DNA from: an uncultured Nitrospirales bacterium
Lineage (GTDB): Bacteria; Hydrogenedentota; Hydrogenedentia; Hydrogenedentales; GCA-2746185
Assembly (NCBI GenBank): GCA_964401695.1
Contig: CAYNZS010000004.1
Coordinates: forward strand, 1 to 44,366
Reading direction: 5' to 3'
DNA length: 44,366 bases
The translations under genes and the position numbers were made by a program. Below, one piece after another: positions 4,209 to 31,870 of the stretch; position 1 is the stretch's first letter; each line of letters opens with the position of its first letter. The notes under the pieces were generated by a model. The model saw only the letters and a list, made by a program, of their open reading frames with translations. It did no database searches and had not been told where the DNA came from.

Positions 4209-4224
4209 GCCGATTCTATGATCC

Positions 4225-5754: not shown

Positions 5755-5802
5755 GTATAACTTTCTGAGCCCGGCCGGGGGCCCGTTGGCCGCGTCACTC
5801 GG

Positions 5803-9235: not shown

Positions 9236-9241
9236 GGTTTC

Positions 9242-9679
9242 CTATTCGTCGGCCAGGTCGTCGCTGCTGATGTCTGCGTCGTCGTCGCTGCCGCCAGGCG
9301 TCCCGTCGGCGCCGTAGGAAGTGATGGTGAAGTTGCGGCCCTCCGATTTGTAGTCGTAGGGGTTGCCCCACGGATCTACAGGAACGGTTTTGCTGTCGAG
9401 GAAATTGCGATTCTTCGAGTTCTCCACCAAGTCTTCAAGGCGTCCTGGGAACTCGTTGAACTGAATCTTGTAACCCATGACAGCGGTGTTGAGGTTCTTG
9501 ATCTGCGCCTGTGCCGTGGCGCGGTCGGCGTCACCCAACGCACCCAGCACGTTCACGCCTACAATCGTAGCGAGCCCCGCGATAATCGCGATCACGACCA
9601 TCAGTTCTACAAGCGTAAAGCCCGCCTCGCCCCTGTGGCTCTTCGGCCGTCCAGTCCAGTTCGGTCGTCTCGGTTCCAT
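9242..9679 (-). CDS. gspG: Type II secretion major pseudopilin G
   Basis: AG|FTLVELMVVIAII, PVDPWGNPYDY, SYGADGTPGGSDDDADI. ATG 9679 follows AAGGAGG. Confidence 0.93.
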   Translation of the reverse strand: MEPRRPNWTGRPKSHRGEAGFTLVELMVVIAIIAGLATIVGVNVLGALGDADRATAQAQIKNLNTAVMGYKIQFNEFPGRLEDLVENSKNRNFLDSKTVPVDPWGNPYDYKSEGRNFTITSYGADGTPGGSDDDADISSDDLADE

Positions 9680-9754
9680 GTCTCTTATCCTCCTTATGTT
9701 CTGGCGCACGCCCATTTGTCGAATAGCGGGGCGCGAAAGGGCCTCTACTCTCTA

Positions 9755-10978: not shown

Positions 10979-11025
10979 GTGTTATGCCTCTCGGCTGCGC
11001 GAATGCCAATGGAGCCAGCGCGCGA

Positions 11026-12762: not shown

Positions 12763-12764
12763 AG

Positions 12765-14975: not shown

Positions 14976-15057
14976 GCGTTTTCCTTTCTAGGGCTCAAGC
15001 GCGGACTCCGATTGCGCCGCGCCAGGATGGGCGGGGCCGCGGCGCGCTTTCCATACG

Positions 15058-15984
15058 TCATTTCAGAGAGTAATTCAGGTACTGCTGTTTTCCGCCTCGG
15101 ATGATGCCTATGCGAAACGATCGGGCGCCGGCAAATCTGTTTAACACTTTGAGTATCGAATCGGTGCTGTCGACCGGCTGGTTGTTGATGGTGGTAAGAA
15201 TGTCGTTATCTTGCAGGCCAAGATCCTTTGCCAATCCGATTTGAGAAACGTTAGAGGAGGTCAGTCCGATCACCTTGCCGTTCGCGTCTTTATGTTCTTT
15301 TACATCGACCTTGGTCGCGATGTCCACGTACTCGTCGAGCAGCCGCTGGTGAATCTCTTTCTGATTCAGTTTGATTGTATTGGCGCGCAATTCGGCCAGC
15401 TTCGGCCGTGTGGCCCGGTCTGTCCGGGGCGCCGGGACGGCAGACGTATTGGCCGCTATCTCGTAGGGCTCAAGCATGGGGAGATGCTCGAGCTTGTTCT
15501 CCCGCTCGTTCCGCAAGATCACCTCGTGCGCGAGCACCTCGTCGAGATAGACCTTGTCGAGAACCTCGTTGCCAATGAAGTACGTCATCGTCAGTTGGCC
15601 GCGGTCCTTGTGTTGAACTATTGCGCTGGCAAAAGGGTCGCGTCGTCCCGCGAGCATCGTGCCTTTGAGCAATAGCGGGAGTTTCGTTATTTCTTCGGTC
15701 GGAGGAGGCACAACCACAGGTAGAGGAACATTGGCCGCGCTATCCTTCGCGGCAGCGCCAAATATGCCGCTGCGGATAATTTCGCTGTAGGCCCCCGGGG
15801 GGCCGGTCCGGGCAAACTCGAATTCGCTTTCAAAAACGCCGGGGAACGAGTCTTGCTTGGAGGGGCCACGTGTCGCCAGGACGAAGTTGTTGAACACAAA
15901 AAACCCTACCCATAGCAAACACAGGCCCGCCAGGGCGCCTTCGGCAAGCTTGAAGAGATGCCGATATAAGAGTCCGCGCACCAT
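15058..15984 (-). CDS. gspC: Type II secretion protein C (TM, HR domain, PDZ domain)
   Basis: N-terminal TM; LPLLLKGTM...AIV HR domain; PDZ-like LGLQDNDILTTINNQPV...IIRGGK. First gene of the gsp cluster. Confidence 0.85.
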   Translation of the reverse strand: MVRGLLYRHLFKLAEGALAGLCLLWVGFFVFNNFVLATRGPSKQDSFPGVFESEFEFARTGPPGAYSEIIRSGIFGAAAKDSAANVPLPVVVPPPTEEITKLPLLLKGTMLAGRRDPFASAIVQHKDRGQLTMTYFIGNEVLDKVYLDEVLAHEVILRNERENKLEHLPMLEPYEIAANTSAVPAPRTDRATRPKLAELRANTIKLNQKEIHQRLLDEYVDIATKVDVKEHKDANGKVIGLTSSNVSQIGLAKDLGLQDNDILTTINNQPVDSTDSILKVLNRFAGARSFRIGIIRGGKQQYLNYSLK

Positions 15985-16152
15985 GGATACTTAAACTCCT
16001 GCCCCGCTACGCTGCCGACGCATGGGCACTGTTAGGGGAATAAGGAAAACGAGAAAACACCGCCGCCCGCCTGGTCCGGCCCACCCCCAAAAGGGGCAAC
16101 TCGGGCCTTACCTGATCGTTAACGCAGCCGCGCAGCCTTAAGTTGACTCCGA

Positions 16153-16310
16153 CGCCTTTTTTCTTGCGTTTTGCGGCCAAAAGCCCTGTGTTTGCGGGCT
16201 TCCGTTTCTGGATGCCCGGCTTACTATAAACCGGCGGGGTGGGCGCATTAACCGCGGTTTCAGCGGTAATGCGCTGGTATGCGTTCAAGCCGAACGCAAG
16301 AAAAAAGGCG
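16153..16310. repeat. 158-bp intergenic element bounded by perfect 18-bp inverted repeats, with internal hairpins
   Basis: CGCCTTTTTTCTTGCGTT (16153-16170) is the exact reverse complement of AACGCAAGAAAAAAGGCG (16293-16310). Inner hairpins at 16181-16201, 16243-16274 and 16280-16298. Confidence 0.85.
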
Positions 16311-16347
16311 GAAGAGGAGCGGCGTCGGCCAGGCACGCTGACTAGCG

Positions 16348-18663
16348 CTAACGCTGCTTGCGAACCTCGCTGCGCACAAACGCCTTGTAATCGTCCAGTT
16401 TCACGTAGGGTTTGAGCTCGGCCTCGTCGGGTTCGACGCCTTTTTCTGTCAGAACGGACTTCGAGACCTGCTTCATGTGATGCTGGGATACGAAATCAGC
16501 GACTACGTATTGTTCGCCATCTTCAGAACTGGTCGTGATAGCGTGTTTTCCGCGTGTGCCTCCGAGCGGAATGAGAACGCCCGATTCCCCCTCGCGGAGA
16601 AACAAGATTGCTTCCTCGCCAACGGCGTAGGTGGGTGTCTCCGAGGCTCTCACGACGTAGTTTCCAACGCGGCCGTACGGAAGATCGATGTAGACTGTGC
16701 TCTGTTTGTTCAGCGAGCCCTTCAAGTTATCGTTGACGGTGATTCCCACGGTCGTGACGATGCCGCCATGATCGTCCCTGATTCGGCTTTCCACGCTGGC
16801 GACGGTACCCTCGACAATACTATCCGCAAGGCTAATTAGTTCGTTCTCCGAGACCGGGTAGATCGCGGCGTGAGCGCTAGGCCCGGCGAGGAATCCGAAG
16901 ATGGCAAGCGCTGCCAACGCGGCCGCTACGGCGGCGCGGCGGCGCTTTCTGGCAACCAGCGCGAGGGCGGTTAGTGCGCAGGCTGACAGAAGCGTGGCGA
17001 AGGATCCGTCCGTCAACAGCCACTCGGCGAACAGGGCCGCGAGACCGAAGACCTTGAGCAGGAGGGGCTTTTCGCGAAGCATTCGCGCCATGGCCGGACC
17101 GGCCTGATAGTATGCATCGACCACGACGACACCTGCCGCGGATTGAAGCAGTACGCGGTCGCGAAATCCGCGCAACAGATTTGGGCCGGCGGCTACGCCG
17201 AGTTCCTGCTCGATTACCAGCAGCGGGCATACCTCGCTCTTGTCTCCAAACATGGGGGTGTCGTTCGCGACCATTGACGCGAATGTTCGCCCAGAGACTG
17301 GGTCGACAACCTGGCCGCGAAGGGGATCCCACGCGAGCGCCGTGCCCGCCTCCCTGTTTTCCTCGCCGAAGAGCTCACCGTCCGCAAAGAAAGTTTCGGT
17401 CTGAACGATGGTGTCGTAGGGAATCGTCCACTGGGTGCCGTCGCCGAGTGGGGAGTGCATGGAATCGAAGCCGGCGGGCCCCTCGGTTCCGGAACCCAGT
17501 TGGTTAGTTGGGTTGATGGGAGCCAAGGTGAAGGTGTAGGTTGCCTGAAACGAAGCTCCATCGCCGAACCCGATGAACTCCCTCAAGAGCCCAGGCATGA
17601 CAAACTGTCCCCGGTTCGAGATCTCATGGCTCGGCGTATACAGTCCCGTCATCGTGGCCATGAATGGGACGCGCGGGGTCGAAGGATTATTATCGACATC
17701 GGCCCATGCCGTGACCAGACTTCCGAGCAAGGGGGTCGATGGAATCTGTGCGCGGGATTGAGTTCTGGCTTCGCCACGAATCGAAAAGAAGGCGCTTTGG
17801 TCGGTTCGGGGATACAAGAATGAGACGACGCCGATATCTGCCGGCGAAAGATCTTGGTATCCGCCAACGAAGTTGCCCGCGCCGTCGTCGGTTATAAAAA
17901 CGCTCGGGAACATGGTTGGGGTGACCCCGACACGCCGCAACGCGCCGGTTGCGTCGGGCTGCGCGTAGACCGCCGTCTCTACATTGGTGTTCAGCGTAGC
18001 GTCGAACGCGAGATTGCTCATGGGGTTGTGGCCGATGCCCATCCAGTGGCCGGCCTCATGCACGACGGTGCCTTTGAGGTCGGCTATCGGATTCGCGCCG
18101 CGGTGCGATGTCATCTCGATCACGATATCGGCTTCGAGAATCCGCGTGCCTTGCACTTCATATGTCATCGTGCCGTCTGGAGAAGTCTGGAATCCGTCTT
18201 CGAGAAAGAAGTTGACGAACGTTATCCCTAGTATGGGGAAGGCAATGCCTGAATTGACAGGATCCCCCGGTACTTGCGCTGCAATCAGGTTCAGGCCATC
18301 TTGCGTACCGAGCCCGGTGAAAATGCCGGCGGGATCGATGATGGGTGTCGTGTAACGCATCCCGATAAACGAGGTCGGCACGTCTTCCCACACCTCGAAC
18401 GAGTCCATGACGATGTCTTCTTCGACGGCGGTGAATCCGAAATCGCCTCGTTCGACCGTCACCGGGATTCCCTCGTCAGGACCGGTTACATCACCGTCGC
18501 CGTTGACATCCATGTCTTCGATGAACCATCGATAGACACGCATCTCCAAGTCGACAGCTGAAGTTCCGCCGAGGGGAAAGAACGCTAGCGTTTGCGGCGC
18601 CGTCCCCAGCAACGCGGCCAAAAGTAGATAGGTCACCAGTTTTCGCTTTAGGCTCGAATTCAC
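16348..18663 (-). CDS. Secreted metzincin (matrixin/M10-like) Zn protease with an internal CFI-box-CTERM-like anchor, a second signal peptide and an extra C-terminal domain
   Basis: Signal peptide (TLA|FF); EADIV; HEAGHWMGIGH at 18028-18060; Met-turn PTMFP; FRDRVLLQSAAGVVVVDAYY. GTG 18663 follows AAAGGGAG. Confidence 0.85.
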   Translation of the reverse strand: MNSSLKRKLVTYLLLAALLGTAPQTLAFFPLGGTSAVDLEMRVYRWFIEDMDVNGDGDVTGPDEGIPVTVERGDFGFTAVEEDIVMDSFEVWEDVPTSFIGMRYTTPIIDPAGIFTGLGTQDGLNLIAAQVPGDPVNSGIAFPILGITFVNFFLEDGFQTSPDGTMTYEVQGTRILEADIVIEMTSHRGANPIADLKGTVVHEAGHWMGIGHNPMSNLAFDATLNTNVETAVYAQPDATGALRRVGVTPTMFPSVFITDDGAGNFVGGYQDLSPADIGVVSFLYPRTDQSAFFSIRGEARTQSRAQIPSTPLLGSLVTAWADVDNNPSTPRVPFMATMTGLYTPSHEISNRGQFVMPGLLREFIGFGDGASFQATYTFTLAPINPTNQLGSGTEGPAGFDSMHSPLGDGTQWTIPYDTIVQTETFFADGELFGEENREAGTALAWDPLRGQVVDPVSGRTFASMVANDTPMFGDKSEVCPLLVIEQELGVAAGPNLLRGFRDRVLLQSAAGVVVVDAYYQAGPAMARMLREKPLLLKVFGLAALFAEWLLTDGSFATLLSACALTALALVARKRRRAAVAAALAALAIFGFLAGPSAHAAIYPVSENELISLADSIVEGTVASVESRIRDDHGGIVTTVGITVNDNLKGSLNKQSTVYIDLPYGRVGNYVVRASETPTYAVGEEAILFLREGESGVLIPLGGTRGKHAITTSSEDGEQYVVADFVSQHHMKQVSKSVLTEKGVEPDEAELKPYVKLDDYKAFVRSEVRKQR

Positions 18664-18713
18664 CTTTGCTCCCTTTCGTTTCAACGAGGGGCAATCATCC
18701 CTCGTACATTCGG

Positions 18714-21700
18714 CTAATTCCTAGCGGCGCGCCATCTCCGCCGGCCAAGCGAGGCGCCCGCAACCGCTAGCAGCGCAAACGTCAACGCTATCGGGAACTC
18801 GAGGAACCACGCCGCCGGAATAAGAACCATTCTGACAACCGACGCGAGCCAGGGCCGCGCTGCGACCTCATCGGCCAGGGCCGGACTCGCCGTGTAGTAG
18901 GCATCCACCAGAGCAACGCCCGCCGCGGATTGCAGCAAGACACCGTCGCGGAATGCGCGGAAGGTGTCGAGCCGCGCCTCAAGGGGCGAGCCAAAGGCGG
19001 CGGTCGCGATGAAGCACGGGCCCATTAGAGCCGGATCGTTCAGGAACGTAAATCCGGACAGTAGCGTATCCTGCGATGCCAGGACGCCGACCTTCGAATA
19101 GTTCTTCACCTGCACATCGAGAGCGCCTGTGTCTGGCATGCCGCCTGGTGGGAAGCCGACCGAAATGGAGGTTCCATCTTCGGACACGCTAATCACCGGC
19201 ATAACCATCTCGCCGAAAATAACTTCGATGAGCGGCGGCTGCGAGAAGTTCTCGCCGATAACCGTGACCGAGAAATCGACTGAGGATCCGCGCGAGGGCA
19301 CCACGTCAAGGACCCGCGTTCCCTGGCTCGCCTCGATGAGCGTGAAGAGATCGGCCCGGGTGGCCTCTTCGAGTGTAAAGGGATTGCGCACAATGGTAAC
19401 CACCGGGGTCTGTGGTTCCACGTTCGGAAGGTCTGACAGCGCTAAGCGAATGACGTAGTCGCTCGACTCTAACACCTCGACGGAGTAGCCGCCGATCGCC
19501 ACTTGCGCCGCGCTGCCGAAGTTGTCGCCGCGCAGAAGCACCTCAATGGTTTCGCCCTCAGGAATTGCCAACGGCAGTCCGCCGGGCGTTGCCGAATCAA
19601 TCACAATCATGGTTGGCGTTACCAGAGCGTCCTGCGTGGTTATCGTCCCGGACTGGACCTTCTTGCTGGTCGTCGAGCGGATCCAGCGGAGCGGGCTCGG
19701 GTCCGGCTCGCTGTAGGCCACCCGCTCGCGCATCCAGTAACGGGTCGGCGCTTCCTCGTACATGGTGATAAAACCCAATCCGCGCGAGCCAAAGGGAAAT
19801 TCGCTGAACTTCTTGAATTCGTCCGCGGGCTGTTCGGGCGGCAGCGGGAAGGTGAAGGTGTCAGGATCCGGCTCGGAGGGAGTATTGGGACCCCACGATA
19901 CGATGGCAGCCGTGAAGTCGGCGCCTTCGCCCAACTCGGCCGAAGCGCGCACCACGACAAAAAAGTCAGGCCCCTCGAATTCGACTGCGCCCGGGCCTCC
20001 TTGAGCGTTGGGCACCCACTGGCGCAGGCGCGGTTGCTCTTCAATCGGGACTGGGAAGTCGTCCGTTCCCGGCGACGACATTACGAACTTGACTTGTGCC
20101 GTCGGTTGGCCCGCGCCGCCTACAAGGACAGGCGAATCATCCAGCACCACGGGAATGTCAATGCCCGGATCGAATACACCGTTGAGGTTGTCCGGATGCC
20201 CATCGTTGTCGCGGTACAAGGCGACGCCGCTTACCGACTGATCCGCCGCCAAAGGCAACAGGTCGACAAAGAAGCTGAATGTGGACGCCGTTGAAGCGCG
20301 CTCGAATTCGACGATAATCTGCTCAAGGAAGGTGGGATCCTTCACGACGAGATAGGAGCCCGCATGGGGTTCGCCGCTGACGAGCGTGAGGCGGTCGGCG
20401 GTGTTGCCCACGATCGCGAAGGTTTTGTAGCCGCTGTCCACCAGATACTTGCCGCGGTACACGTCCGCGGCCCACGCCTTCGATGTATCCAGGAACTGCT
20501 CGGGCGCGCCGACGCCCTCGGTACCCGAATCGACTGTCAATTCGGGCCGGTTCGTGTAGGCGTCGATACCGAAGACCGGGAGCGCCGGGCTGTTCGGACG
20601 CAACTGCACGTTGTGCGACGCGATGTTCGTGATATCCACCGGCACGTTCACATTCAGCATGTCATGGCTGTAGAAATCGACAACGGTTCCTTCTTCTGGA
20701 TTCCGCTTCGTCAATGCGCTGGCGCTTACCGTGCCCTGCGGCGTAATCCGCATCCCCGCCTGACGCTGCCCCGCATCGCGCGAGGGCAGCGTGAAGGGAA
20801 CAAACGCGCGGAATTTCTCGTGGGCGGAGATATCCTTCGAGGTCTTCACGACGAAGAACAGGTCGTCGCCGAAAGTATGCGGCGAATCAGCGGTCCCTTC
20901 GTTATCCTGGTCATTCCCGGGAAGAACGATCGGGGTCTGCGGCGTCAACGTCAATACCCACGCGTTGTCGCCGCTGTCTACATCGCCGTCGCCATCGACG
21001 TCATCGGCGACGCCGTCTCCGTCGATATCGACCGGCTCGGCTGCATCCTTCCAACCCAGGAGGTTCAGCGGGACGACCGTCTCATCGAATTGGAATCCAG
21101 CAACGCCGAAATTGGCCTCGGGCGAACTTAGGAATACGCCGTCCCCGGCATTGATATCGTCATCGGCCCAAAGCGTGACGCCCGAGTCCAGGTCGTCGCC
21201 CTCCGGATCGAGGGGCAACAGGTCGGATGGGTCGAAGCCAGGACCCCAGATGGCAACCGTCAATTCGTCGAGGGTGCTCGGATTCGAAGCCAATACGACC
21301 GGGTCTCCGTTTCCGACAAGGTTAAAACCGAGTATCGGCATCAAGCCGCTGCGCGAATCGACACGCTGCACAAGAAGCCGCGCCTGCCGGTCCTCCGGCG
21401 CCCAGTCGGTCAAGTGCGGATAGGCGCCCGGAGCCAGCTCGGCCGGCCAAGTAAGATAATCCGGCATGGACGGCAACGCAAGCGGATTCTGATAGAAGCG
21501 TGAACGAGGCCCCAATATGCCCCCGTCGAATTCGGGAAGGAAGAACGGCACGGACTCGAACGCGGGGTACGAACTGTCCGTTCTGCTGTTCGTTGTATAG
21601 AGCGGAACACCAAACGCATTGTACGAAACACTAACCTCCCAGTACCCAACCGGTGGAGTATCAAAATTCAGGAAGCGACTGGCGGTGAGTCCGAGCGAAT

Positions 21701-24700
21701 CGAGCCACAGCGGGAACGCGCCGAGAGCGAATGGGATAGTCGGAAAGCGAGCGGTCAATGCCCGCGTCTCATAAACGGATACCAGGTCATGGACCTCCAC
21801 ACCCGTCCGAAGAGGCTTCACGACGGTGGAATTGAGCGTCCGCTCGGGCCACCATGGCTCGATTTCGCCCCAACGGGGATCGTCTTGCCAAACGGGGGCT
21901 ACCACGTCCACATTCTCCGCGTACGGAATCATGCTGTCAATATAGATACCGCCAGTGTTGCTTCCCGTTGTTGGATTGACGCGGCGCGGCTCGACAAACA
22001 CGCGGGTGTCCGCGCCGGGTGTCAGTCCGATTCCGTCTCCCGGTTCTGTGGAGACATCAGTGAATCCGCCATCCGGTCGGAACACGAGAAAATAGTCGAC
22101 GCGAGCCGCGTCGGCAAGCCCGTTTCCGCCGCCCTGGATCTCTTCGTCAGCGCCTTCCCGTGCGTCGGGTACCGGCTCCAGGAATCCTCCAAGCCCGTCA
22201 AGCGGTGATCCAAGCCGTTCGCGGCTCCCATCGCGGAACTGCAGCTTGATCTTCCACCAGGGATCTCCCCCACCCGGTGGGAAACTGATGTATTCCCATT
22301 CGGGCGGTATGATTTCTGGCAGCAGATGGTAGTCGGTGAACGTGACGCCGAACCCATCGGGAGCCGGAGTAGGCGGATCGAAGAGTCCATTGTTATTGGT
22401 GTCGGCAAATATGGCGACACCATAGAACCCGGGGTCGCGCCCTATGGCTGTCTCGACTTCCAGGAATTCGGAACCGTCTTCGAATATGTCCGGGAAGTTC
22501 TCCAGACCGCTTCTCGGATCAAAACCGCCGCTACCCGGTCCTGCGAAGGGATCGCCGCCGATATCTGTAAACACTACGTTGACCTCGCGCAGCGTAGCCT
22601 GTGGTATAGCAGGATCTTCACCCGTGGTGTATACGGGGTGATCCGTATGAGAGAGCCCGGTAGAATGGGCATCAATGCCCACCGCTTGCACCCAAGTGTC
22701 GACCGCGAAGAGCTGCCGCATTCCCTGGAAATGGCCCGCTACAATGTCAAACACCGTTCCCGCCGGGTTGAATCGTGGCCTCGAGAATTCGACCATGGGG
22801 ATCTGGGCCGTGTGCGGGGTAATCCACGAGTTGTGGTAGGCTTCGAGGTACGGCTCGGCTGGGCCTGCCGTGATGTCATAGACGCTGAAACTCGACGTGT
22901 AGAGCGGGTTGTCCTCGAGAATCTCCGCATCGAGGAAGTTGGGACTGTACGAGTCGGCCGGTTCGCCATCTTCGTTTACGGCGAACGGGGTCATGCGCGC
23001 GTCGAGCACTTCGTAGCCAAGGTCGATGCCGTCGCGCCATGTAGCCGAGGTGCGCATGGCGACAATATAGGACAGCCCATTCTCGTCGAATCCGCTCTGT
23101 ACGCGGTACTGGGGATCGTTCGTGCTGCCCGTCCCTATGAAACTCAGGTTGTACTGAATCGAACCGCCCAGGTCCACTCCAAAGCCCACCGGCGCACCGG
23201 TGTTGTCCCAGGTGAACAGCAAGGTGTCCAGCGAGTCAAGCCCCCCATCGAAGTCCTCTTCCGGATCGCCTCCTTCGACGAACAGGCCGTATTCGAGGAT
23301 GTCGGACATCCTCGGATAACTCGACAAAAGCGTGGGGCCGGGATCGGGGTCGGGGTCGGAGACCAGCGAGTAGGTCAGCGTTTGGAGGAACCGCGTCGCT
23401 GGCGCCTCCGCGTCGTCGGACGACATATTGATGTTGAAGAGCGGCACCCAGTCGTTCAACGGCACAAGCGCGTGGCCGCTGCGGTCAACATCTCCCGCAG
23501 CAATCGAATCGGCGACGGTGAGGCTCGCAGTGGGTCCGCCGACGACCGTTCCGCCTCCGCCACCGCCGCCCAGCCGCACGGTGATGTATTGGGGCTTCTC
23601 CACGGTGTCCACTGAGCCATCGGCAAAGGTCACCGTCAGTTCGACCGTGTAGAACCCGGCCATGGTATACAGGTGAAGCGGATTCGGGTCGGCACTCGTG
23701 GGGCTCCCATCGCCGAAATCCCACAGATAGCTCACCGGATTGCCCGACGGCCCGCCATCGGACTGATCCAGGAAGCTGACTTGCAGCGCCGCTTCGCCAT
23801 CCCGCAGACTGGCTATAAATTCGGCGAAGGGCTGCAGGAGAATCTCAATGTAGTCGGGCTTCGTTTCGGTGAATTTGATACCGGTCAGGTCGGTAACGGT
23901 CAAGGACACGGTATAGAGACCTGCGACGGTATACGAATGCGAGGGATTCTGGTCGGTCGATGTGATTCCATCTCCGAAGTCCCACAGATACGCCGAGGCC
24001 AGGGCAGGGTCGGTCAAACTCGTGAACTGTACGGGCAGATCCCGCCCTTGACGCGTGGGTTCCGCGATGAAATCGGGGGTCAGGCCTTGCGCGCCCGTAA
24101 TGACCTCGGTCAGAAGATTCTTGGAGACCGTCGTTCGCACCCAGTTGTAGCCGCTGATGTCCACCTCTTGATGGGCGGTATGCTCATCCATCCAGTAATA
24201 GAGGGGCGGTTCTTTGAAGAAGCTGATGTATCCGATCGCCCGGGTGCCCCAAGCGAATTCACTGAAAACGTCAAACTCGTCGGCCGGTTGTGCCGGCGGC
24301 GGCGGATCGGAGAAGGTGTCGGGATCGGGTTCGGTCGGCGTGTTGGGGCCCCACGAAACGATGCCCACGCGGAAGTCGTCGCCGAGCACCATGTCGAGGC
24401 TACTGCGCAACACGACGAAGAAATCGGGCTCATTCCCCGCTTGAAGCCCGCCAAAAGAATCCGGGATCCACTGGCGCAACCGCGGCTGGTCGGCGATCGG
24501 CGTGGGGACGTTGTCGGTGCCGGGCGAAGAGAAGACGAAGCGGATCTGGTTTGTAGGCTCGCCCGGAATACCAAGACGGACGGGCCGGTCGTCGAGGCGG
24601 ACGGGCAAGTCTATGTACTGGACTGCGCCATTGACAACGACGGGCGGATCGAAGACGCCACGCCTGTTGTTCGGATGGAAGAAGTTGTCGCGGTAGATCG

Positions 24701-27700
24701 AGACACCACTGGATACGCCGTTGGCCGGATCTTCGAAGTCCAGCGAGGCCAAGTCTTCGGCCATGTTGAACTGGCCATCGGGTTCGTCCGGAAATCCGTC
24801 ACCATCGGTGTCGATGCCTTCGTCGTAGATCTCAACGATCATCTGCTCGAGGAAAGTTGGCGATCGCGCGATGAGCCACGCCCCCTCGCGAGGGCTTCCG
24901 CTCAGTAGCGTAACGACGTTCGCGGTGTTCCCGACGATCTCATACGGTTCGAATTCGCTGTCGATGACAAAATCGCCAACCAACGCGCCAACCGGCCAGG
25001 GCAAGCCGCTCACCACAAGGGTAGAGTCGCCGCGTGTGCCCTCACCCAGCGTTTGGGAACTATACGGAGTCGCTTCCGAAGAGGGCCGGTTGGTGGAGGC
25101 GTCGACGCCAATGACAGCGACCGGGATGCCGGCACCGATTTCCGAGTTCGGCGCCAGCAAGGACACCAGCGCCGTCGGCACGTTGAACTCGAGCGTGTCG
25201 TGTCCGTACCAATCTTGCACCGGGTTTTCGTCGGGGCTGCGACGGATAAGCGAGTCGGCCGGCATATGAACATTGGGCGAAAATGCGATACTCGCGTCCT
25301 GTTCTGCCGGTATGCGGCTCGGAAGCTTCGCCGGTATGACGACGCGAATCTTCTCGAACTGACGCACGGAATCCGACGGCCGGATCACGACGAACAAATC
25401 ATCGCCTTCGTTGCCTCCGTCAGGAAGCGCTTTGGGCGTAGCCGCTTTCGCAGCCTTCTCCGCTCGCGCCTCGTCCAGCATGGCATCGACCCCGTCTTCG
25501 GTGAAGCCGCCTTCGGGAATGTCCATGGGCGACACGGCCACAGCAACTTCTTCGACGACAGCGCGAGACTTGCCCCCGTCGCCAGTGCCTAACCCGCCAC
25601 CATAGCGAATGTCGGAAATGGGCACGCGCCAGAGATCCTTCGGCCGCATGCGCAACACCCAAGCGTAGTCATCTTCATCTGCGTCACCGTCTCCATCCAT
25701 ATCGTCTGGGATTAAGTCGCCGTCAAGGTCGATGGGTTCCGGCGCGCCGGCCCACTCGAGGTTGTTGAGCAGCACAGGCGAGTCTGCGCCAAGAACGGCA
25801 TTGAAATTGGAATTGGCCGTTCCATTGAAAATGCCGCCCGTCAAGCCGCTGCCGCTGTTGGAGTCTTCGTAGAGCATCACACCGGACTCAACGTTGGCTC
25901 CATTCGGATCGAGGGGTCGAAGATCGCTAGGCGTAAAGTCGGGACCCCAGAACGCAACGGTCACTTCCTCGAAGAAGGATTGCGAAATGCGATTGACTAC
26001 GGGGTCGTCCGCGCCGACCATGTTGATGCCGATCATTGCCGTGGGCGGGTCGTCGTTGTTCGCGTGCTGCTGAAGCAACCGCGCGGCCCGGTCCACCTGC
26101 GCCCAATCGGATTTTCTCGGATATTGGCCGGGGGGAAGCGCGTTCTCAATGAGATCTTTGCGAGGCCAACTGTCATAACTTGGCAAGGAGGGTCGCAGCG
26201 GTGGATTCGGGAAGAATTGCGAGCGTGGACCGAATGGAGCTTCATCGAAAATCGGGATAAAGAACGGCACCGTTTCATACGACTGTTGATTATAGGCGAA
26301 GATATCGTCGGATACGATGGCAATCTCGTCCCCAATGTTGATGGTGGTTAGAATGACGTCCTTCGCATTCGTTCCAACAAAGTGAATCCCAGAGAATACG
26401 GTCGGGAAACCGGTCCAGTTGTCAAAGGAAACCGCAGCCGAATCGCCCCCCCATTGGCCGAAGGGATCGATCCAAAAATCGAACAGAGATAACTGGCCCG
26501 GCAGGCCTAGGGTATCATCGGCACTGAACGAGGCGTAGTATCCGACCCCCAGCAGGGCTTTCGCGTCCTGGTTGTTCGTGCTATACGTAAGGACGAGATC
26601 ATGCACCTCGACCGCGCCCCGTTGGGGCTTCGCGTTATTCTGGTTGAGGAAGCGCTGTGGCCACCATTTTTCGTTCGCGCCCAGGGTATCTACAGGCTGG
26701 TTCAGGCCGATAGGCGGCGGCTGATCCATCAGCGAGTGATAATGCAGGCCTTCCGGTCCGGGCCAATTGTTGGCAAAGTGTGCTTGGGGCGGGTTTACGA
26801 CGGTCAGCGGGTCGAGTACAATGGAGTCAGGAGAAAAGATCTGAGCGTCGGTCCAGATGCCGCCGTCCCATTCGCCCTCGTTAAGGAAGGGGTTGAACCG
26901 GCGCGGCTCGATGAACGCGCGGAAGTCTGCACCCAGGCCGAGGCCCGTGCCGTCCCCCGCAACCAGCGTCGCGTCCCGGAAGCCACTATCCGGGCGGATG
27001 GTGATAAAATAATCGACCGCCCATGAGGAAGGATCCTCATTGTCGCGGCTGTCCGGCGTGGGGTCCAGATGGCCGGTGGGCTCGTCATCGGAATTGCTGC
27101 GGCGGCGGCCGCCATCGAAGCGCAGCCGAACCTTGAAGGCCGGATCGCCACCCCAAGGCGGGTTGGGAATGTACTCCCAACCCGGGTTGTACGGTTCGAC
27201 CTGCTCGCTGGGAATACTTATATCCGGATCCATCGGATAATCGCCCTGGAAATTCACGCCGCTGTCCGTAGTCGCCACGGGGACGTCGAAGATACTGTTG
27301 TCGTTCGTGTCATGAAACATCCAGGCGCCGTTGAAGGGATATTCCCTGCCGAGGGTCTGATCCGCGGGGACGTAGTCGGGGTGCTCGTCCGCAATCGTGA
27401 ACGGGTCGAACCCGTCGCGCGGATCGAAGCCACCGTTACCCGGAACGGGGTTGTTGGGATCGGCTCCGATGTCCGTGAAGACCAGGTTAACTTCGCGGAT
27501 TCCTCCGTTGCCATGCATGTTGATGCCAATGACCGAGGTCCACGTCTCGAGGGCGAACAGTTGCCGCAGGTCCAGCCACTCGCCGGTGACCATATCGAAG
27601 GTCTGGCTCGCCCCGTCGAAGCGCGGCCGAATGTGCTCCGCCGCGGGCGTGTAGAGCTTATTGACCCATGTCCAAGGGTTGGGATTCGGGCCGGCCCCTG

Positions 27701-29165
27701 TTGCGTCATATACCGAAAAACTCGAGTACATGCGGGTGCAATCGCCGTCTCCGGGATATGGATCCGGCGGATCGCCATCGAGTAGCTCACCATCATCGGT
27801 TAATGGAACGGGGGTTTCGCCCGTGAGGGGATTGAACAGATTCGGGTCGACCATTGTCCGTTCAGTAAGTTGCGCCGAGTAAAACAAACTGGTCGCGTTT
27901 GCCCACGCCGCCGAGGTGCGAAAGAGAACGAAATAGGCGTTGCCGCCATCGGCCGTCGAAGAGCGTGGCCAGGCGGCCCGAAGCTCGGGATCCGCGAGCA
28001 GGTAGCCATTCTCGTAGAAGTCAAGGTTAAACGTCAGGTCGTCGGTCGGTTCTTGATACGGGAAACCGTCGTTGGCCCAAGTGAGAATGGGAGGGGAGTC
28101 GATGACGCCGTTGGGGCCTGGATTGTATACGCCATCCGGGCCTCCTTCGCCAAAATCCTGGACGAGGGCGAACTCGAGAATGGAGTTCATAGTGGGGCTG
28201 ACGAACGCATCGAAGGGCGGGTTCTCTGGAAAGCAACCCGAATCGATACTGTAGACGACTTGACCCAAGACGCGCTCCGCGAAAACACCTGTGTCTTCGT
28301 CCAAGTCGGCCTCCATCGTGATCTGGAACAACGTCGTCCAATCGTTCAGGGGGAGAAGCGAGCCGTCATCGGGAAGCATGTGAGCGAACGAAAGCGACGC
28401 CGACGGCGGATCGTCGGGCGCTTCGGTGACGATAATCTGGATCGTCTCGAAGGGAGGCAGTGGGTCCTCGGCATCTGGGGGCGGCTGGAGAATAAGCGTG
28501 TATGTGCCTTGCTCCCAAATGCGGAGCGTGACTGTGTCTACCGTATCGTCGGTGAGGAGCGGAATGCAGTTGGCCCCGGCGAATCCATCCCATACCCATC
28601 CAGGCGGGTCGCCAGCGGGGTCGCACTCGGCGGCATCGGGATCGTTATTGGACAGATTCCATTCCCGGATTCTGGGGGGCGCGTCGAGGTCGGCCAGCGT
28701 GATCGGTTGCCCTTCGCCGACGACGATCGTTCCGCCAGCGAGCGGGGGCAGCGTGACGAGGGCTTTGGCGCCAGCCTGGGCCATCTGGAATGGTTTCAGC
28801 GCGGCGGCGGAGTTGTCTTTGGGCACATCACGCTGTGTGCCGGGCGAAAAAGATGTGGCCGGTTGGTCGGGCTGCGATGATTCTTTCAATGGGGCCAAGG
28901 GCGTAGCGATGGTGGAATCGCCGAATTCAATTTCGGTGGCGAAACCGATAGCCGCGAACTTGGCTTGCATGGACGGGTACGCTTCGAGCGATGCGTCTGT
29001 TTCCGACACCGCGCGGCTCCCGGCCGCCCGAATAAGCGGTTCGGCTTTCCGCTCGAACTTCGCTATCTCGTCATTATCGACAGTCCCCGGCGAAACCGCC
29101 AGAGCCCCGATGGTGGCTCCGGCCAAGAGGCCCACGATCACAAACGTGCCAATCTTTTTTATCAC
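18714..29165 (-). CDS. Giant (3483 aa) acidic surface/secreted protein: signal peptide, two large internal repeats, 2 PKD, 2 IPT/TIG, CFI-box-CTERM anchor
   Basis: N-terminal signal peptide; two PKD signatures YLWDFGDG...NP.H.Y (about 23575-24085); IPT/TIG-like LRGDNFG and VIGENFS (about 19040-19620); C-terminal GPCFIATAAFG...FRDGVLL...YY..SP, TM, RRRWR. GGAGG precedes the GTG start. Confidence 0.88.
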   Translation of the reverse strand: MIKKIGTFVIVGLLAGATIGALAVSPGTVDNDEIAKFERKAEPLIRAAGSRAVSETDASLEAYPSMQAKFAAIGFATEIEFGDSTIATPLAPLKESSQPDQPATSFSPGTQRDVPKDNSAAALKPFQMAQAGAKALVTLPPLAGGTIVVGEGQPITLADLDAPPRIREWNLSNNDPDAAECDPAGDPPGWVWDGFAGANCIPLLTDDTVDTVTLRIWEQGTYTLILQPPPDAEDPLPPFETIQIIVTEAPDDPPSASLSFAHMLPDDGSLLPLNDWTTLFQITMEADLDEDTGVFAERVLGQVVYSIDSGCFPENPPFDAFVSPTMNSILEFALVQDFGEGGPDGVYNPGPNGVIDSPPILTWANDGFPYQEPTDDLTFNLDFYENGYLLADPELRAAWPRSSTADGGNAYFVLFRTSAAWANATSLFYSAQLTERTMVDPNLFNPLTGETPVPLTDDGELLDGDPPDPYPGDGDCTRMYSSFSVYDATGAGPNPNPWTWVNKLYTPAAEHIRPRFDGASQTFDMVTGEWLDLRQLFALETWTSVIGINMHGNGGIREVNLVFTDIGADPNNPVPGNGGFDPRDGFDPFTIADEHPDYVPADQTLGREYPFNGAWMFHDTNDNSIFDVPVATTDSGVNFQGDYPMDPDISIPSEQVEPYNPGWEYIPNPPWGGDPAFKVRLRFDGGRRRSNSDDEPTGHLDPTPDSRDNEDPSSWAVDYFITIRPDSGFRDATLVAGDGTGLGLGADFRAFIEPRRFNPFLNEGEWDGGIWTDAQIFSPDSIVLDPLTVVNPPQAHFANNWPGPEGLHYHSLMDQPPPIGLNQPVDTLGANEKWWPQRFLNQNNAKPQRGAVEVHDLVLTYSTNNQDAKALLGVGYYASFSADDTLGLPGQLSLFDFWIDPFGQWGGDSAAVSFDNWTGFPTVFSGIHFVGTNAKDVILTTINIGDEIAIVSDDIFAYNQQSYETVPFFIPIFDEAPFGPRSQFFPNPPLRPSLPSYDSWPRKDLIENALPPGQYPRKSDWAQVDRAARLLQQHANNDDPPTAMIGINMVGADDPVVNRISQSFFEEVTVAFWGPDFTPSDLRPLDPNGANVESGVMLYEDSNSGSGLTGGIFNGTANSNFNAVLGADSPVLLNNLEWAGAPEPIDLDGDLIPDDMDGDGDADEDDYAWVLRMRPKDLWRVPISDIRYGGGLGTGDGGKSRAVVEEVAVAVSPMDIPEGGFTEDGVDAMLDEARAEKAAKAATPKALPDGGNEGDDLFVVIRPSDSVRQFEKIRVVIPAKLPSRIPAEQDASIAFSPNVHMPADSLIRRSPDENPVQDWYGHDTLEFNVPTALVSLLAPNSEIGAGIPVAVIGVDASTNRPSSEATPYSSQTLGEGTRGDSTLVVSGLPWPVGALVGDFVIDSEFEPYEIVGNTANVVTLLSGSPREGAWLIARSPTFLEQMIVEIYDEGIDTDGDGFPDEPDGQFNMAEDLASLDFEDPANGVSSGVSIYRDNFFHPNNRRGVFDPPVVVNGAVQYIDLPVRLDDRPVRLGIPGEPTNQIRFVFSSPGTDNVPTPIADQPRLRQWIPDSFGGLQAGNEPDFFVVLRSSLDMVLGDDFRVGIVSWGPNTPTEPDPDTFSDPPPPAQPADEFDVFSEFAWGTRAIGYISFFKEPPLYYWMDEHTAHQEVDISGYNWVRTTVSKNLLTEVITGAQGLTPDFIAEPTRQGRDLPVQFTSLTDPALASAYLWDFGDGITSTDQNPSHSYTVAGLYTVSLTVTDLTGIKFTETKPDYIEILLQPFAEFIASLRDGEAALQVSFLDQSDGGPSGNPVSYLWDFGDGSPTSADPNPLHLYTMAGFYTVELTVTFADGSVDTVEKPQYITVRLGGGGGGGTVVGGPTASLTVADSIAAGDVDRSGHALVPLNDWVPLFNINMSSDDAEAPATRFLQTLTYSLVSDPDPDPGPTLLSSYPRMSDILEYGLFVEGGDPEEDFDGGLDSLDTLLFTWDNTGAPVGFGVDLGGSIQYNLSFIGTGSTNDPQYRVQSGFDENGLSYIVAMRTSATWRDGIDLGYEVLDARMTPFAVNEDGEPADSYSPNFLDAEILEDNPLYTSSFSVYDITAGPAEPYLEAYHNSWITPHTAQIPMVEFSRPRFNPAGTVFDIVAGHFQGMRQLFAVDTWVQAVGIDAHSTGLSHTDHPVYTTGEDPAIPQATLREVNVVFTDIGGDPFAGPGSGGFDPRSGLENFPDIFEDGSEFLEVETAIGRDPGFYGVAIFADTNNNGLFDPPTPAPDGFGVTFTDYHLLPEIIPPEWEYISFPPGGGDPWWKIKLQFRDGSRERLGSPLDGLGGFLEPVPDAREGADEEIQGGGNGLADAARVDYFLVFRPDGGFTDVSTEPGDGIGLTPGADTRVFVEPRRVNPTTGSNTGGIYIDSMIPYAENVDVVAPVWQDDPRWGEIEPWWPERTLNSTVVKPLRTGVEVHDLVSVYETRALTARFPTIPFALGAFPLWLDSLGLTASRFLNFDTPPVGYWEVSVSYNAFGVPLYTTNSRTDSSYPAFESVPFFLPEFDGGILGPRSRFYQNPLALPSMPDYLTWPAELAPGAYPHLTDWAPEDRQARLLVQRVDSRSGLMPILGFNLVGNGDPVVLASNPSTLDELTVAIWGPGFDPSDLLPLDPEGDDLDSGVTLWADDDINAGDGVFLSSPEANFGVAGFQFDETVVPLNLLGWKDAAEPVDIDGDGVADDVDGDGDVDSGDNAWVLTLTPQTPIVLPGNDQDNEGTADSPHTFGDDLFFVVKTSKDISAHEKFRAFVPFTLPSRDAGQRQAGMRITPQGTVSASALTKRNPEEGTVVDFYSHDMLNVNVPVDITNIASHNVQLRPNSPALPVFGIDAYTNRPELTVDSGTEGVGAPEQFLDTSKAWAADVYRGKYLVDSGYKTFAIVGNTADRLTLVSGEPHAGSYLVVKDPTFLEQIIVEFERASTASTFSFFVDLLPLAADQSVSGVALYRDNDGHPDNLNGVFDPGIDIPVVLDDSPVLVGGAGQPTAQVKFVMSSPGTDDFPVPIEEQPRLRQWVPNAQGGPGAVEFEGPDFFVVVRASAELGEGADFTAAIVSWGPNTPSEPDPDTFTFPLPPEQPADEFKKFSEFPFGSRGLGFITMYEEAPTRYWMRERVAYSEPDPSPLRWIRSTTSKKVQSGTITTQDALVTPTMIVIDSATPGGLPLAIPEGETIEVLLRGDNFGSAAQVAIGGYSVEVLESSDYVIRLALSDLPNVEPQTPVVTIVRNPFTLEEATRADLFTLIEASQGTRVLDVVPSRGSSVDFSVTVIGENFSQPPLIEVIFGEMVMPVISVSEDGTSISVGFPPGGMPDTGALDVQVKNYSKVGVLASQDTLLSGFTFLNDPALMGPCFIATAAFGSPLEARLDTFRAFRDGVLLQSAAGVALVDAYYTASPALADEVAARPWLASVVRMVLIPAAWFLEFPIALTFALLAVAGASLGRRRWRAARN

Positions 29166-29306
29166 CTGACCCTACCTCCGAAAAAAACGTTTCGCCGACA
29201 TGCCGCGCTTCGTGAGAACGGAATTCACCCAGGGCTTGGGCCTACCCCACAACTCCACTCCCGGCCGAAACGAAACTTTGACGCCGCTACCCTCATCCGC
29301 TCCTGG

Positions 29307-29326
29307 AGCACACAACGGTCGTGTGC
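29307..29326. promoter_or_regulatory. Operator-like palindrome in the 5' leader; 13 bp are repeated in the promoter spacer
   Basis: GCACACAAC-G-GTCGTGTGC (29308-29326). AGCACACAACGGT occurs at both 29307-29319 and 29453-29465. Confidence 0.5.
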
Positions 29327-29447
29327 ATTCACCGCCGCATACGGCCTCGGCAAAACACTCGTAAACACCAAGCGGAAGCGCCCAAGAAAGACGCGGGGCT
29401 GCACCTGCACGTCGACTAATAAACGTTTGGCTTAATACTTCGGCTTT

Positions 29448-29476
29448 TTTATAGCACACAACGGTATAAGTGTCAA
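29448..29476 (-). promoter_or_regulatory. Near-consensus sigma70 promoter for the giant-protein gene
   Basis: Minus strand TTGACA (29476-29471), 17-nt spacer, TATAAA (29453-29448) with an extended -10 TG, inside an AT-rich patch. Confidence 0.8.
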
Positions 29477-29826
29477 TAAAGAAGGGGTCGAAATTCCCAT
29501 AACTGCCTTAGGTTAAGGCGTTCCAAGGCGGCGGCTCGCCTTCCAGTTTTCTCACATTCCTGTAAAGAAACTACGAAATCCACCGATTCCTGCAATTCGA
29601 CCGGCTATTGGGCCGCTCTTTGGCCACCGGATGAAGGTCGCGTATCGAATCACGGTAAAGACGCGGCCGCAATCAAGAAAGGGGACATCGGTCTTGCTCG
29701 CGATTGAACCACATAATGAGGGCAGAAACCAAAAAGTTTTAGGTTGTTGCGGCCCGTTCTCGCTATGGCATCTAACGTATTGACTCACGGGTGGCGCAGC
29801 TCTTGAAAGCACGGCAAAGCGTTCGC

Positions 29827-29925
29827 CTTCTGTCATCCTGAACGAAGTGAAGGAACTCGATACGCCGGAAGTCCAATGAAATGGAGAGATACTTCGCTTC
29901 GCTCAGCATGACGGGTAAGATGGAA
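29827..29925. repeat. REP/REPIN-like palindromic element, copy 1
   Basis: GTCATCCTGAACGAAGTGAAGGAACTC...GAGATACTTCGCTTCGCTCAGCATGAC, with 27-bp imperfect inverted arms at 29832-29912. Near-identical to 33734-33830. Confidence 0.85.
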
Positions 29926-30177
29926 GCAGCATGAGGTCAATGCACCAGCCCGGATATCTCACCGCTCTTCTACTGCGACGGCGAATAAGGCCGCTCGCAC
30001 GAGACTTCTCTCGATTTTCGACTTCGACGTGACGTGCCACGCTGTCGGCGGCGGCTTGTTCGAGATTCGCGCTCGCTGTTTCAATTGACGGCGTTTGGGC
30101 GGGCGCGCGATCTCGGAATGCCGGCCAACCTTTATCTCTTCCATCGACCAGAGAAACATGGGAGGCGCCGCCGCTGT

Positions 30178-30205
30178 TTGACGGCGCGGCACAAGCCGTT
30201 ATAAT
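30178..30205 (+). promoter_or_regulatory. sigma70-type promoter for oppABC
   Basis: TTGACG (30178-30183), 16 nt, TATAAT (30200-30205), 33 nt before the GTG start. Confidence 0.72.
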
Positions 30206-30238
30206 GCGGAAGATTTGCGGCCTCTGGAAAGGACTTCC

Positions 30239-31870
30239 GTGAAATTCACGATCTTGATATCGATGACGTGCGTACTGTTCGCCGTTTGCCTGGCTCTCGC
30301 CGGTTGTGGCGCGGAAACGGATTCGGACCGGATGATCATCCGAATCGGAAACGGAACGGAACCGGAGGGCCTGGATCCGCATATCGTTACAGGGGTGCCG
30401 GAGCACCATATTCTCCTTACGCTGTTCGAGGGCCTTGTCCGCGCTGACACCGGAAATCTGTCGCCGACGCCGGGAGTGGCGGAAACTTGGGAGGAATCTG
30501 AGGACAAGCTGGTGTACACGTTTCGCCTGCGCGAGGACGCCAAGTGGTCCAACGGCGAGCCGCTGACGTCGAAGGATTTTCTGTACGCCTGGGAACGGAT
30601 TCTCACACCGGCGCTCGCCAGCGAGTACGCCTATATGCTCTTCCCAATGAAGAACGCCCAGGCTTTCAACGAAGGGGCGATCGACGATTTCTCGTTGGTC
30701 GGCGCGGAGGCGCCGAACGAGCGCACAGTCAGGATTACGCTCGAAAACCCCACGCCTTATTTCCTCTCGCTTCAACTCCATTACAGTTGGTATCCGGTGC
30801 ACCAAGCGACCATCGAGAAATTCGGCGCGAAGGAGGACCGCATCTCGCGGTGGACGCGCGCGGGGAACTTGGTGGGGAACGGCCCATATGTGTTGTCCAG
30901 GTGGTCGCCGAACGAGATTATCGAAATGACGCCGAATGAGCATTATTGGGACGCGGCAAGCCTGCGAAACGACGGGATTCACTTTTATCCGATCACCGAT
31001 GGGCAGACGGAGGAACGCATGTTCCGCAACGGGGAGCTCCATATCACATCGAATGTTCCCGTTAGCAAAGTTCCCGTGTATCAGGCGGAGAATCCGGAAC
31101 AGCTGCGGATCGACCCATGGATCGGCACGTACTTTTTCCGCTTCAATACGACACGTCCGCCGTTGGATGACCCGCGCGTCCGCCGGGCCTTGGCCATGGC
31201 GCTGGACCGAGACACGCTCTGCGATCAGGTTCTGCACGCGGGAGAAATGCCCGCGCCGTTCCTAACGCCTCCGGGTATCAACGAGTACGTGCCCACAGCC
31301 AGAGTTACATACGACGTGGCCGCCGCGCGGAAATTGCTAGCCGAAGCGGGATACCCGGATGGCGAAGGCTTCCGCACCGTCGACATCCTTTACGCCACAA
31401 GAGAGAAGAACAAGACCATCGCCGAAGCCATCCAGCAAATGTGGAAGAAGGGCCTTGGCATCGATATCACCCTTTCCAATCAGGATTGGAAGGTCTATCT
31501 CTCGACAACCAGCAACAAAGTCATGGACTATGACATCGCCAGTGGCGGCTGGATTGGCGACGTGGTCGACCCGATCAATTTCTTGGAGTGTTTCATCACT
31601 GATAACGGCAACAACCGGACCGGCTGGGGCAACGCGGCCTACGACGAGTATCTCGCCAAGAGCATGGCCGTCGGCGACACCGCACAACGCAACAACCTCT
31701 TTGACCAAGCCGAAACCATCCTGATCGAAAGCATGCCCATCATCCCCATTTACCACTACACCAATCCCTTCCTCATCGACCACCGAATTCGCGGCTTCAC
31801 GTCGAACCTTCTCGGGTACTACGCGTACCACAAGGTGTATCTCGGCGACGGCGGGTCCGGCGATTCGTAA
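30239..31870 (+). CDS. oppA: Oligopeptide ABC transporter substrate-binding lipoprotein (family 5)
   Basis: Lipobox LAGC; EPEGLDPH, LFEGLV, YTFRLREDAKWSNGEPLT, DPRVRRALAMALDR, GWIGD. GTG 30239 follows AAAGGA. Confidence 0.93.
   Translation: MKFTILISMTCVLFAVCLALAGCGAETDSDRMIIRIGNGTEPEGLDPHIVTGVPEHHILLTLFEGLVRADTGNLSPTPGVAETWEESEDKLVYTFRLREDAKWSNGEPLTSKDFLYAWERILTPALASEYAYMLFPMKNAQAFNEGAIDDFSLVGAEAPNERTVRITLENPTPYFLSLQLHYSWYPVHQATIEKFGAKEDRISRWTRAGNLVGNGPYVLSRWSPNEIIEMTPNEHYWDAASLRNDGIHFYPITDGQTEERMFRNGELHITSNVPVSKVPVYQAENPEQLRIDPWIGTYFFRFNTTRPPLDDPRVRRALAMALDRDTLCDQVLHAGEMPAPFLTPPGINEYVPTARVTYDVAAARKLLAEAGYPDGEGFRTVDILYATREKNKTIAEAIQQMWKKGLGIDITLSNQDWKVYLSTTSNKVMDYDIASGGWIGDVVDPINFLECFITDNGNNRTGWGNAAYDEYLAKSMAVGDTAQRNNLFDQAETILIESMPIIPIYHYTNPFLIDHRIRGFTSNLLGYYAYHKVYLGDGGSGDS

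Follow-up and report, generated by a model that had tools for sequence, protein, structure and literature searches.

Surface proteins that leave the cell through a type II secretion system (T2SS) are the closest described counterparts, in their arrangement, of the gene that we consider here. One of them, SslE (YghJ) of E. coli, is about 1500 amino acids (aa) in size. This lipoprotein has a T2SS dedicated to its secretion (PMC5012682), T2SS-beta, and as a large surface-associated cargo it heads the operon of that system (PMC5012682, PMC3707838). Another, VesB, is a T2SS surface protein that needs a GlyGly-CTERM domain and rhombosortase, and its C-terminus is tripartite, with a motif, a hydrophobic helix and basic residues (PMC6219818). 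The gene that we compare with these systems lies on a contig of an uncultured bacterium of the phylum Hydrogenedentota (CAYNZS010000004.1 of assembly GCA_964401695.1, 44,366 nucleotides, the whole of which is called the window below). It encodes a giant protein of 3483 aa (18714-29165, minus strand), is the largest gene of this uncultured phylum, and is followed on the same strand by the gene of a 778-aa partner and by a complete T2SS operon.

The locus resembles that of SslE in that the giant and its partner stand on the same strand directly upstream of gspC-M, and the order of giant, partner and gspC-M is likewise conserved, being kept in 12 of 13 genomes. While SslE is an M60-like lipoprotein, the giant has neither a lipobox Cys nor an M60 domain; it carries a C-terminal anchor, and the protease is a separate neighbour. 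The tripartite layout described for VesB is found in both the giant and the partner, and as a Gly/Ser-rich variant in a relative (G087). The motif of the giant, however, is the CFI-box (NF041770), and the genome has no rhombosortase above the cut-off. The giant PKD/Ig-like adhesins of Gram-negative bacteria are similar in being large, with all-beta repeats, PKD and IPT domains and Ca-type loops. They differ from the giant, which has an uncatalogued unit, a duplicated four-unit module where the adhesins have a uniform array, and a link to a T2SS where theirs is to a type I, V or IX secretion system (T1SS, T5SS, T9SS).

The explanation that we favour, at slightly better than even odds, is that the giant may be a dedicated T2SS cargo, a surface scaffold or adhesin that works with the co-encoded protease. 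After export by Sec, the tripartite anchor at its C-terminus (motif, hydrophobic helix and Arg cluster) would hold it at the inner membrane until it is released, and the T2SS whose genes lie directly downstream would then deliver it to the surface or the exterior of the cell. The co-encoded and similarly anchored metzincin would take the same route. Once outside, the giant would be a scaffold or adhesin, stiffened by Ca2+, whose task is to present the protease on polymeric substrates or to position it there. The model is drawn by analogy with SslE and T2SS-beta and with VesB and its GlyGly-CTERM anchor. This explanation offers a testable function for the largest gene of the phylum, a conserved partner of the only T2SS of its genome (single GspL), and it connects CFI-box-CTERM, an orphan signal, with one particular secretion machine and one particular protease. 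If true, it is a second case, after GlyGly-CTERM, of C-terminal anchor sorting that feeds a T2SS, and a pointer to how these bacteria attach to or digest polymers. The kinds of objects involved, a giant repeat adhesin or scaffold and an operon-encoded T2SS cargo, are known; what is new is that the domain family is uncatalogued, which adds a beta-sandwich family to the record, and that the sorting signal is unexplained.

The giant, its partner and the secretion operon

The open reading frame (ORF) of the giant is open throughout and starts with a GTG codon that has GGAGG 9-10 nucleotides (nt) upstream. The product is a secreted-type, almost all-beta protein with the order: signal-like N-terminus, module 1, two PKD domains, module 2, two IPT domains and a CFI-box-CTERM membrane anchor. 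Its N-terminal region (aa 1-253, 28407-29165; all parts of the giant are on the minus strand) begins with what is, as judged by eye, a basic and then hydrophobic signal-like segment, MIKKIGTFVIVGLLAGATIGALAV, without Cys, and continues in a stretch without Pfam match. The linker between the modules (aa 1691-1877, 23535-24095) holds the two PKD domains (PKD_4, PF18911, 104.7 bits against a cut-off of 27 in 2 stretches; PF00801, 72.4 bits in 2 stretches). Whole-protein scans against Pfam (E <= 1) and NCBIfam report the PKD domains and the CFI-box alone. The two IPT/TIG domains (aa 3177-3383, 19017-19637) emerge from a separate scan of the last 307 aa (aa 3177-3483), in which TIG (PF01833) reaches 30 bits against a cut-off of 20.9 in 2 stretches.

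The protein ends in the CFI-box-CTERM region (18717-19016), made of the motif CFIATAAFGS, a helical part, a hydrophobic segment and the end RRRWRAAR. The NF041770 match (aa 3384-3450) scores 75.5 bits against a cut-off of 40, and 83.1 bits in the genome scan. This position at the extreme C-terminus, with the hydrophobic segment and basic residues after the box, is kept in all 13 aligned rows that have the end present. The own genome contains just two CFI-box matches, one in the giant and one in the partner.

The partner (16348-18684, minus strand) follows the giant gene after a gap of 29 nt. It consists of a signal-like start, the zinc-binding motif HExxHxxGxxH in the form HEAGHWMGIGH, a CFI-box-like domain (aa 502-543; 36.6-40.4 bits, 44% identical to that of the giant), a hydrophobic segment and the basic cluster RKRRR; after these come a further signal-like segment, which ends AHA|A, and a domain of about 165 aa at the C-terminus. 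The layout, junction included, is kept in 13 of 13 aligned rows (the protein of the window and 12 homologues). Matches of the partner to metzincin hidden Markov models stay below threshold (matrixin E 0.14, 12.4 bits against 24; M66 E 0.23), and there is no PDB sequence match. The partner reads like a two-part 'polyprotein', of which the second part of about 165 aa is without a family match.

Downstream of the partner, after a gap of 363 nt (15985-16347), the T2SS operon (3699-15984, minus strand, assigned by Pfam) is complete, with gspC, D, E, F, G, three pseudopilins, K, L and M. In relatives, the comparison covers the 20 kb downstream of the giant gene in 12 genomes of 7 families, and G001, which belongs to another family and lineage of the phylum. 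A partner homologue lies 3' of the giant gene in 13 of these 13 genomes, directly after it in all of the 12, and the whole T2SS follows in the same order in 11 of the 12 and in G001, that is in 12 of 13, spanning 8 families. Across the phylum, a partner match at E <= 1e-20 (read from tables) occurs in 117 of 122 genomes that have the module and in 2 of 13 that do not; the latter two are candidates for assembly gaps.

In five relatives the giant and the partner share one open frame (G082, 5163 aa; G087, 4699 aa; G083; G021; G022). At the fusion junctions read in three of them (loci L070 G082:C31, L071 G087:C82 and L072 G022:C9), an anchor and then an Arg cluster precede a fresh signal-like segment. 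As its anchor, G082 has a CFI-box, G087 a GlyGly-like tail rich in Gly/Ser, and G022 a short motif that contains Cys. Anchors vary among the relatives (CFI-box, Gly/Ser-rich or Cys motifs), always as a motif with a helix and a basic cluster. In two further proteins, P0063 and P0064, one module is fused to reprolysin-type protease domains.

The duplicated module and its units

A first-pass annotation of the window, made from its letters, had described the giant as an old, large duplication around two PKD domains, each copy with four degenerate sub-repeats of a novel, calcium-stabilised beta-sandwich. The duplication is borne out. BLASTP of copy 1 against copy 2, used after a whole-protein self-BLAST gave no off-diagonal rows, returns a single alignment (aa 254-1690 with aa 1878-3176, 36.0% identity, 1494 columns, 692 bits, E 0), and the copies flank the two PKD domains found by Pfam. 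Every motif that the annotation quoted is where it had been placed (for the ends of the copies, LLPLNDW at aa 270, position 28358; NWVRTTVSK at aa 1674; LVPLNDW at aa 1900, position 23468; RWIRSTTSK at aa 3160), and the eight end motifs of the sub-repeats are located at aa 410, 718, 1256, 1581, 2032, 2357, 2768 and 3067.

Each module is about 1300-1440 aa long and has four units, A to D; a spacer, X, separates B from C, and D carries a small barrel as an insertion. In module 1 (aa 254-1690, 24096-28406, bounded by the BLASTP of the copies) these are A (254-489), B (537-775), X (776-1030), C (1031-1328) and D with its tail (1329-1690). Module 2 begins with unit A (aa 1878-2099, 22869-23534), a beta-sandwich, followed by unit B (aa 2153-2412, 21930-22709), which has a DxNxNGxFD loop. 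Its spacer X (aa 2413-2597, 21375-21929) contains VEVHDLV, has few strands and is poorly structured, with a predicted local distance difference test score (pLDDT) of about 60-70. Then come unit C (aa 2598-2840, 20646-21374), with a double, thrombospondin-type-3-like DxDGDG at aa 2713, and unit D with its conserved tail (aa 2841-3176, 19638-20645), within which the small beta domain is inserted (aa 2875-2944, 20334-20543). From copy to copy, identity is 37% in unit A, 50% in B, 42% in C and 47% in D.

Do the four units repeat one another? In a first repeat test, where the alignment of 92 modules is run against itself with hhalign, C+D falls on B+C (E 6.7e-16), C on D (1e-9), D on B (5e-7) and A on D (0.015). 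Cleaner alignments, for which genome loci were the source (A1, 40 rows, for C-D; A2, 50 rows, for A-B), relate B to D (97.0% probability, E 1.1e-10), C to D (97.8%, E 1.1e-12) and B to C (86.6%, E 4.5e-6). As a control, any unit against spacer X stays at or below 1.7% probability. Unit A matches D at 18% probability (E 0.0013, 153 columns), B at 6% over 18 columns only, and C at 2%. The A-D alignment is in register at PLFNINM/PVFGIDAY, FLQTLTYSL/FLEQIIVEF, EYGLFVE/GVALYRD and SYIVAMRTS/DFFVVVRAS. It scores 30.1, more than any of 60 column shuffles (mean 15.4, maximum 23.7) or any of 60 block shuffles (mean 17.1, maximum 25.5); the reversed profile scores 8.3. Since the score lies above all shuffles and the motifs are in register, we conclude from these profile comparisons that the four-fold repeat is real, with B, C and D significantly related and A, the most diverged unit, related weakly by sequence.

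The age ascribed to the duplication is supported as well. From 64 proteins, a domain cut-off of 15 bits yields 115 module segments, of which 92 are full length (two-module proteins supply 80, single-module proteins 10 and the three-module P0062 the other 2). A FastTree tree of the 92 modules over 1173 columns has a split with support 0.956. All 34 first modules share their side of it with 4 single-module proteins and the two P0062 modules, and all 46 second modules lie opposite, together with 6 single-module proteins. By this tree, the duplication of the module predates the divergence of the sampled two-module relatives. Because single-module forms sit on both sides of the split, the tree suggests that they arose by secondary loss of a module; its basal nodes are weak (0.22).

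We turn to the loops of the units. An Asp/Asn loop is conserved after the strand 'GVxLY' in each of B, C and D. In the 50 rows of unit B, D378 is present in 50, N380 in 43, N382 in 37, G383 in 35, F385 in 49 and D386 in 44. In unit D, D389, G399, D402 and D406 are found in all 40 rows, and the double DxDGDG of unit C is invariant (D116, G119, D125, G128 and D136 in 40 of 40 rows). Motifs of the DxDxDG type are calcium sites. The loops of the units resemble these and thrombospondin-type-3-like sites, so that stabilisation by Ca2+ is a plausible prediction. The DxDGD loops reported earlier are present, at aa 1146 and 2713; the strong double motif occurs once per module, in unit C, and not in every unit.

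AlphaFold2 models built with the genome-locus family alignments agree with the beta-sandwich that had been proposed. The C-D model (aa 2598-3176; mean pLDDT 85.6, predicted TM score (pTM) 0.84) and the A-B-X model (aa 1878-2598; mean pLDDT 82.6, pTM 0.86) are both almost all strand. When the models are compared by VIA-align with 48,161 PDB representatives, the matched rows cover units A, C and D; the fold of unit B as a beta-sandwich follows from its profile relation to C and D. The models suggest that the fold of the unit is like that of cohesins or of the N-terminal domain of sialidases. Relative to the N-terminal beta-sandwich of the GH33 sialidases of Bacteroidetes (PDB accession codes: 6mnj, 8gn6, 4fj6, 7qxo, 4bbw), the units have 10-15% identity and no sequence-profile match; the giant, in contrast, has no sialidase catalytic domain and repeats the domain eight times with long acidic loops. 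It also differs from the type I cohesin modules of cellulosomes in giving no Pfam cohesin match (scan at E <= 1). Foldseek matches the A-B model with GH33 sialidases (E 1.5e-6, probability 1.0) and finds for the C-D model generic Ig-like chains only (TM < 0.15). The ESM Atlas returns one match at 0.76, a cluster of the same family and no fresh lead. Profile searches of PDB sequences with both family alignments give no match (best E 0.73), and the unit has no match in Pfam, NCBIfam or PDB sequences. The claim of novelty therefore stands for the sequence family, which is uncatalogued, and is reduced at the level of the fold, where the unit is less novel than the first-pass annotation had it.

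The module is single-copy in the own assembly. Of 135 genomes of the phylum, 122 have it, as do 83 of the 86 that are of high quality; among the 13 other genomes of the window's own family, 9 lack it. A word-indexed search gives 63 relatives of 1915-6096 aa at 30-40% identity, and those that are named are PKD-domain proteins of Candidatus Hydrogenedentes. When the genomes of named species are scanned by pattern, 122 relatives emerge (80 kept), most of them titled Hydrogenedentes, -ota, -ales or Hydrogenedens. Some relatives are titled 'uncultured Nitrospirales/Nitrospiraceae', one 'Bathyarchaeia archaeon' and one 'FCB group'; these 'Nitrospir-' and 'Bathyarchaeia' records (L074-L076, L084, L089-L091, L098, L102 and others) look like label problems, and the matching contigs are placed in the window's phylum.

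The unit itself extends further. Searched in full by HMMER with the profile of C-D, 1.84 billion representatives yield 318 proteins at E <= 0.001, 170 at E <= 1e-10 and 101 at E <= 1e-30. Below the core family are proteins with many stretches, such as P0145 (7445 aa, 17 stretches), P0133 (2546 aa, 16, in which the unit repeats with a period of about 170 aa) and P0152 (7236 aa, 14). A Pfam scan of 10 such large proteins reports VWA, Flg_new_2, TIG, Big_13, CHU_C or GEVED and nothing over the unit. Because the unit recurs in these large multi-domain proteins without a Pfam match over it, we take it, on the profile matches, to be a mobile extracellular domain outside current Pfam that forms tandem arrays in other large extracellular proteins. 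In P0145, P0152, P0133, P0135 and P0161, 10 to about 20 unit stretches stand beside VWA, Flg_new_2, Big_13, GEVED or CHU_C (T9SS).

Weighing the possible functions

The first-pass annotation missed the features that bear most on function: within the giant these are its IPT domains and its CFI-box-CTERM anchor, and beside it the metzincin partner and the operon of the T2SS. Some results weigh against the reading of the giant as a dedicated T2SS cargo that works with a protease. One of the 13 genomes (G117) is without a T2SS within 20 kb downstream, and the sampled genomes are kin and non-independent. Eight of the nine genomes of the own family that are without giant and partner keep an orthologous T2SS (GspD E <= 1e-165, GspL E <= 1e-61). 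Because of these eight genomes the T2SS is not exclusive to the giant cargo, and the idea that it exists only for this cargo is ruled out. The assignment of the partner to the metzincins comes from the HExxHxxGxxH motif alone. A known sorting enzyme is not found; the best rhombosortase match (TIGR03902) has 43.5 bits where the cut-off is 84, and rhombosortase is ruled out in this role. We know of no cognate sorting enzyme of CFI-box-CTERM. Our literature searches find no paper that names CFI-box-CTERM and, among papers on secretion in Hydrogenedentes or Hydrogenedentota, none on this protein as judged by titles.

The fate of the T2SS in the giant-less genomes also bears on two other explanations. 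Aeromonas has S-layer-specific secretins of the T2SS type, and the giant could be an S-layer or envelope-coat protein exported via the adjacent T2SS. It is huge, all-beta and furnished with Ca-type loops, it is linked to the T2SS, and its near-universal presence in the phylum (122 of 135 genomes) in a single copy in the own genome fits such a coat. The loss from 9 of 13 own-family genomes, 8 of which keep the T2SS, speaks against it, as do a C-terminal membrane anchor in place of an outer-membrane or lipopolysaccharide-binding domain and the tight coupling to, and fusion with, a protease, which would be unusual; we regard an S-layer as unlikely. The giant could also stay unsecreted, anchored in the inner membrane by the CFI-box helix as a periplasmic scaffold or regulator of the tethered metzincin or of the T2SS. 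The hydrophobic helix and Arg cluster conserved at the C-termini of giant and partner are consistent with this explanation, and so is the lack of an identified sorting enzyme, with the best rhombosortase below cut-off; that the CFI-box is limited to this pair in the genome fits a pairing of the two proteins over a general sorting signal. A rod of at least 12 beta-sandwich domains and 3483 aa, however, would be far longer than the periplasm is wide, PKD, IPT and cohesin-like domains typically belong to extracellular proteins, and since the T2SS is retained without the giant in 8 genomes, the giant is not a core part of it. On balance a periplasmic role seems improbable to us.

The suggested cohesin-like fold raises the thought of a cohesin-type scaffoldin, or a carbohydrate-binding scaffold, that collects dockerin enzymes or binds glycans. 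A common fold does not mean a common function, no cohesin or carbohydrate-binding module family is found by Pfam, and the own genome has a single marginal dockerin (23.0 bits against a cut-off of 22.9). This lack of dockerins rules out cohesin-dockerin scaffolding, and a scaffold of this general kind is very unlikely.

Returning to the dedicated T2SS cargo, a more specific version can be outlined that we hold to be tentative and on the whole doubtful. The giant and the metzincin would form a phylum-specific, T2SS-coupled surface display, in which CFI-box-CTERM, or a simpler Cys/Gly-rich anchor, might act as a sorting tag in the way that GlyGly-CTERM does for VesB. The cargo could be encoded as 'polyproteins' with a fresh signal peptide after each anchor, and the eight-unit Ca-loop scaffold would found a new extracellular domain family.

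Surroundings of the locus

In three giant-less loci (L066, L068 and L069, of G047, G039 and G038), ORFs of matching sizes stand upstream of gspC. The set of L068 was scanned and comprises an ABC-2 transporter together with a GldG-like auxiliary and a DUF4340 protein; in L069 there is, in addition, a coiled-coil-like ORF of 1799 aa. Within the window, two ORFs are set aside. The Arg/Ser-rich ORF of 109 aa at 16007-16336 (minus strand) has neither a family match nor a tblastn match in the 12 downstream loci and is treated as non-coding; this region is probably a spacer between the partner gene and gspC. The ORF at 29903-31237 (minus strand) overlaps a plus-strand solute-binding-protein gene with a strong Pfam match and is treated as spurious.

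Upstream of the giant gene is an intergenic region of about 1 kb (29166-30214). A promoter-like TTGACA-17-TATAAA (29446-29474, minus strand), read by eye, lies there about 280 nt upstream of the giant start codon; the promoter scanner, whose rule requires T at the last position, does not report it. Terminator and promoter scans between genes are at chance level, with no clear terminator in the 363-nt gap, and Rfam has no match in the window. Four metatranscriptome runs from two studies, labelled marine and hydrothermal-vent, contain near-identical short contigs that fall on the genes of the giant, the partner and the T2SS and extend to position 29282, which is upstream of the giant start codon. 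These contigs are a weak hint that these genes are transcribed, as DNA carry-over is possible; the contigs show neither expression level nor strand, and parts of the stretch that they do not cover are not to be read as silent.

On the opposite side of the giant gene from the T2SS operon, the plus strand between 34244 and 43909 encodes two oxidoreductases of the GFO/IDH/MocA type with twin-arginine (TAT) signals, a 778-aa multihaem cytochrome c, a cytochrome b561-like protein, a HEAT-repeat protein and ApbE. This cluster may be a respiratory or extracellular electron-transfer module.

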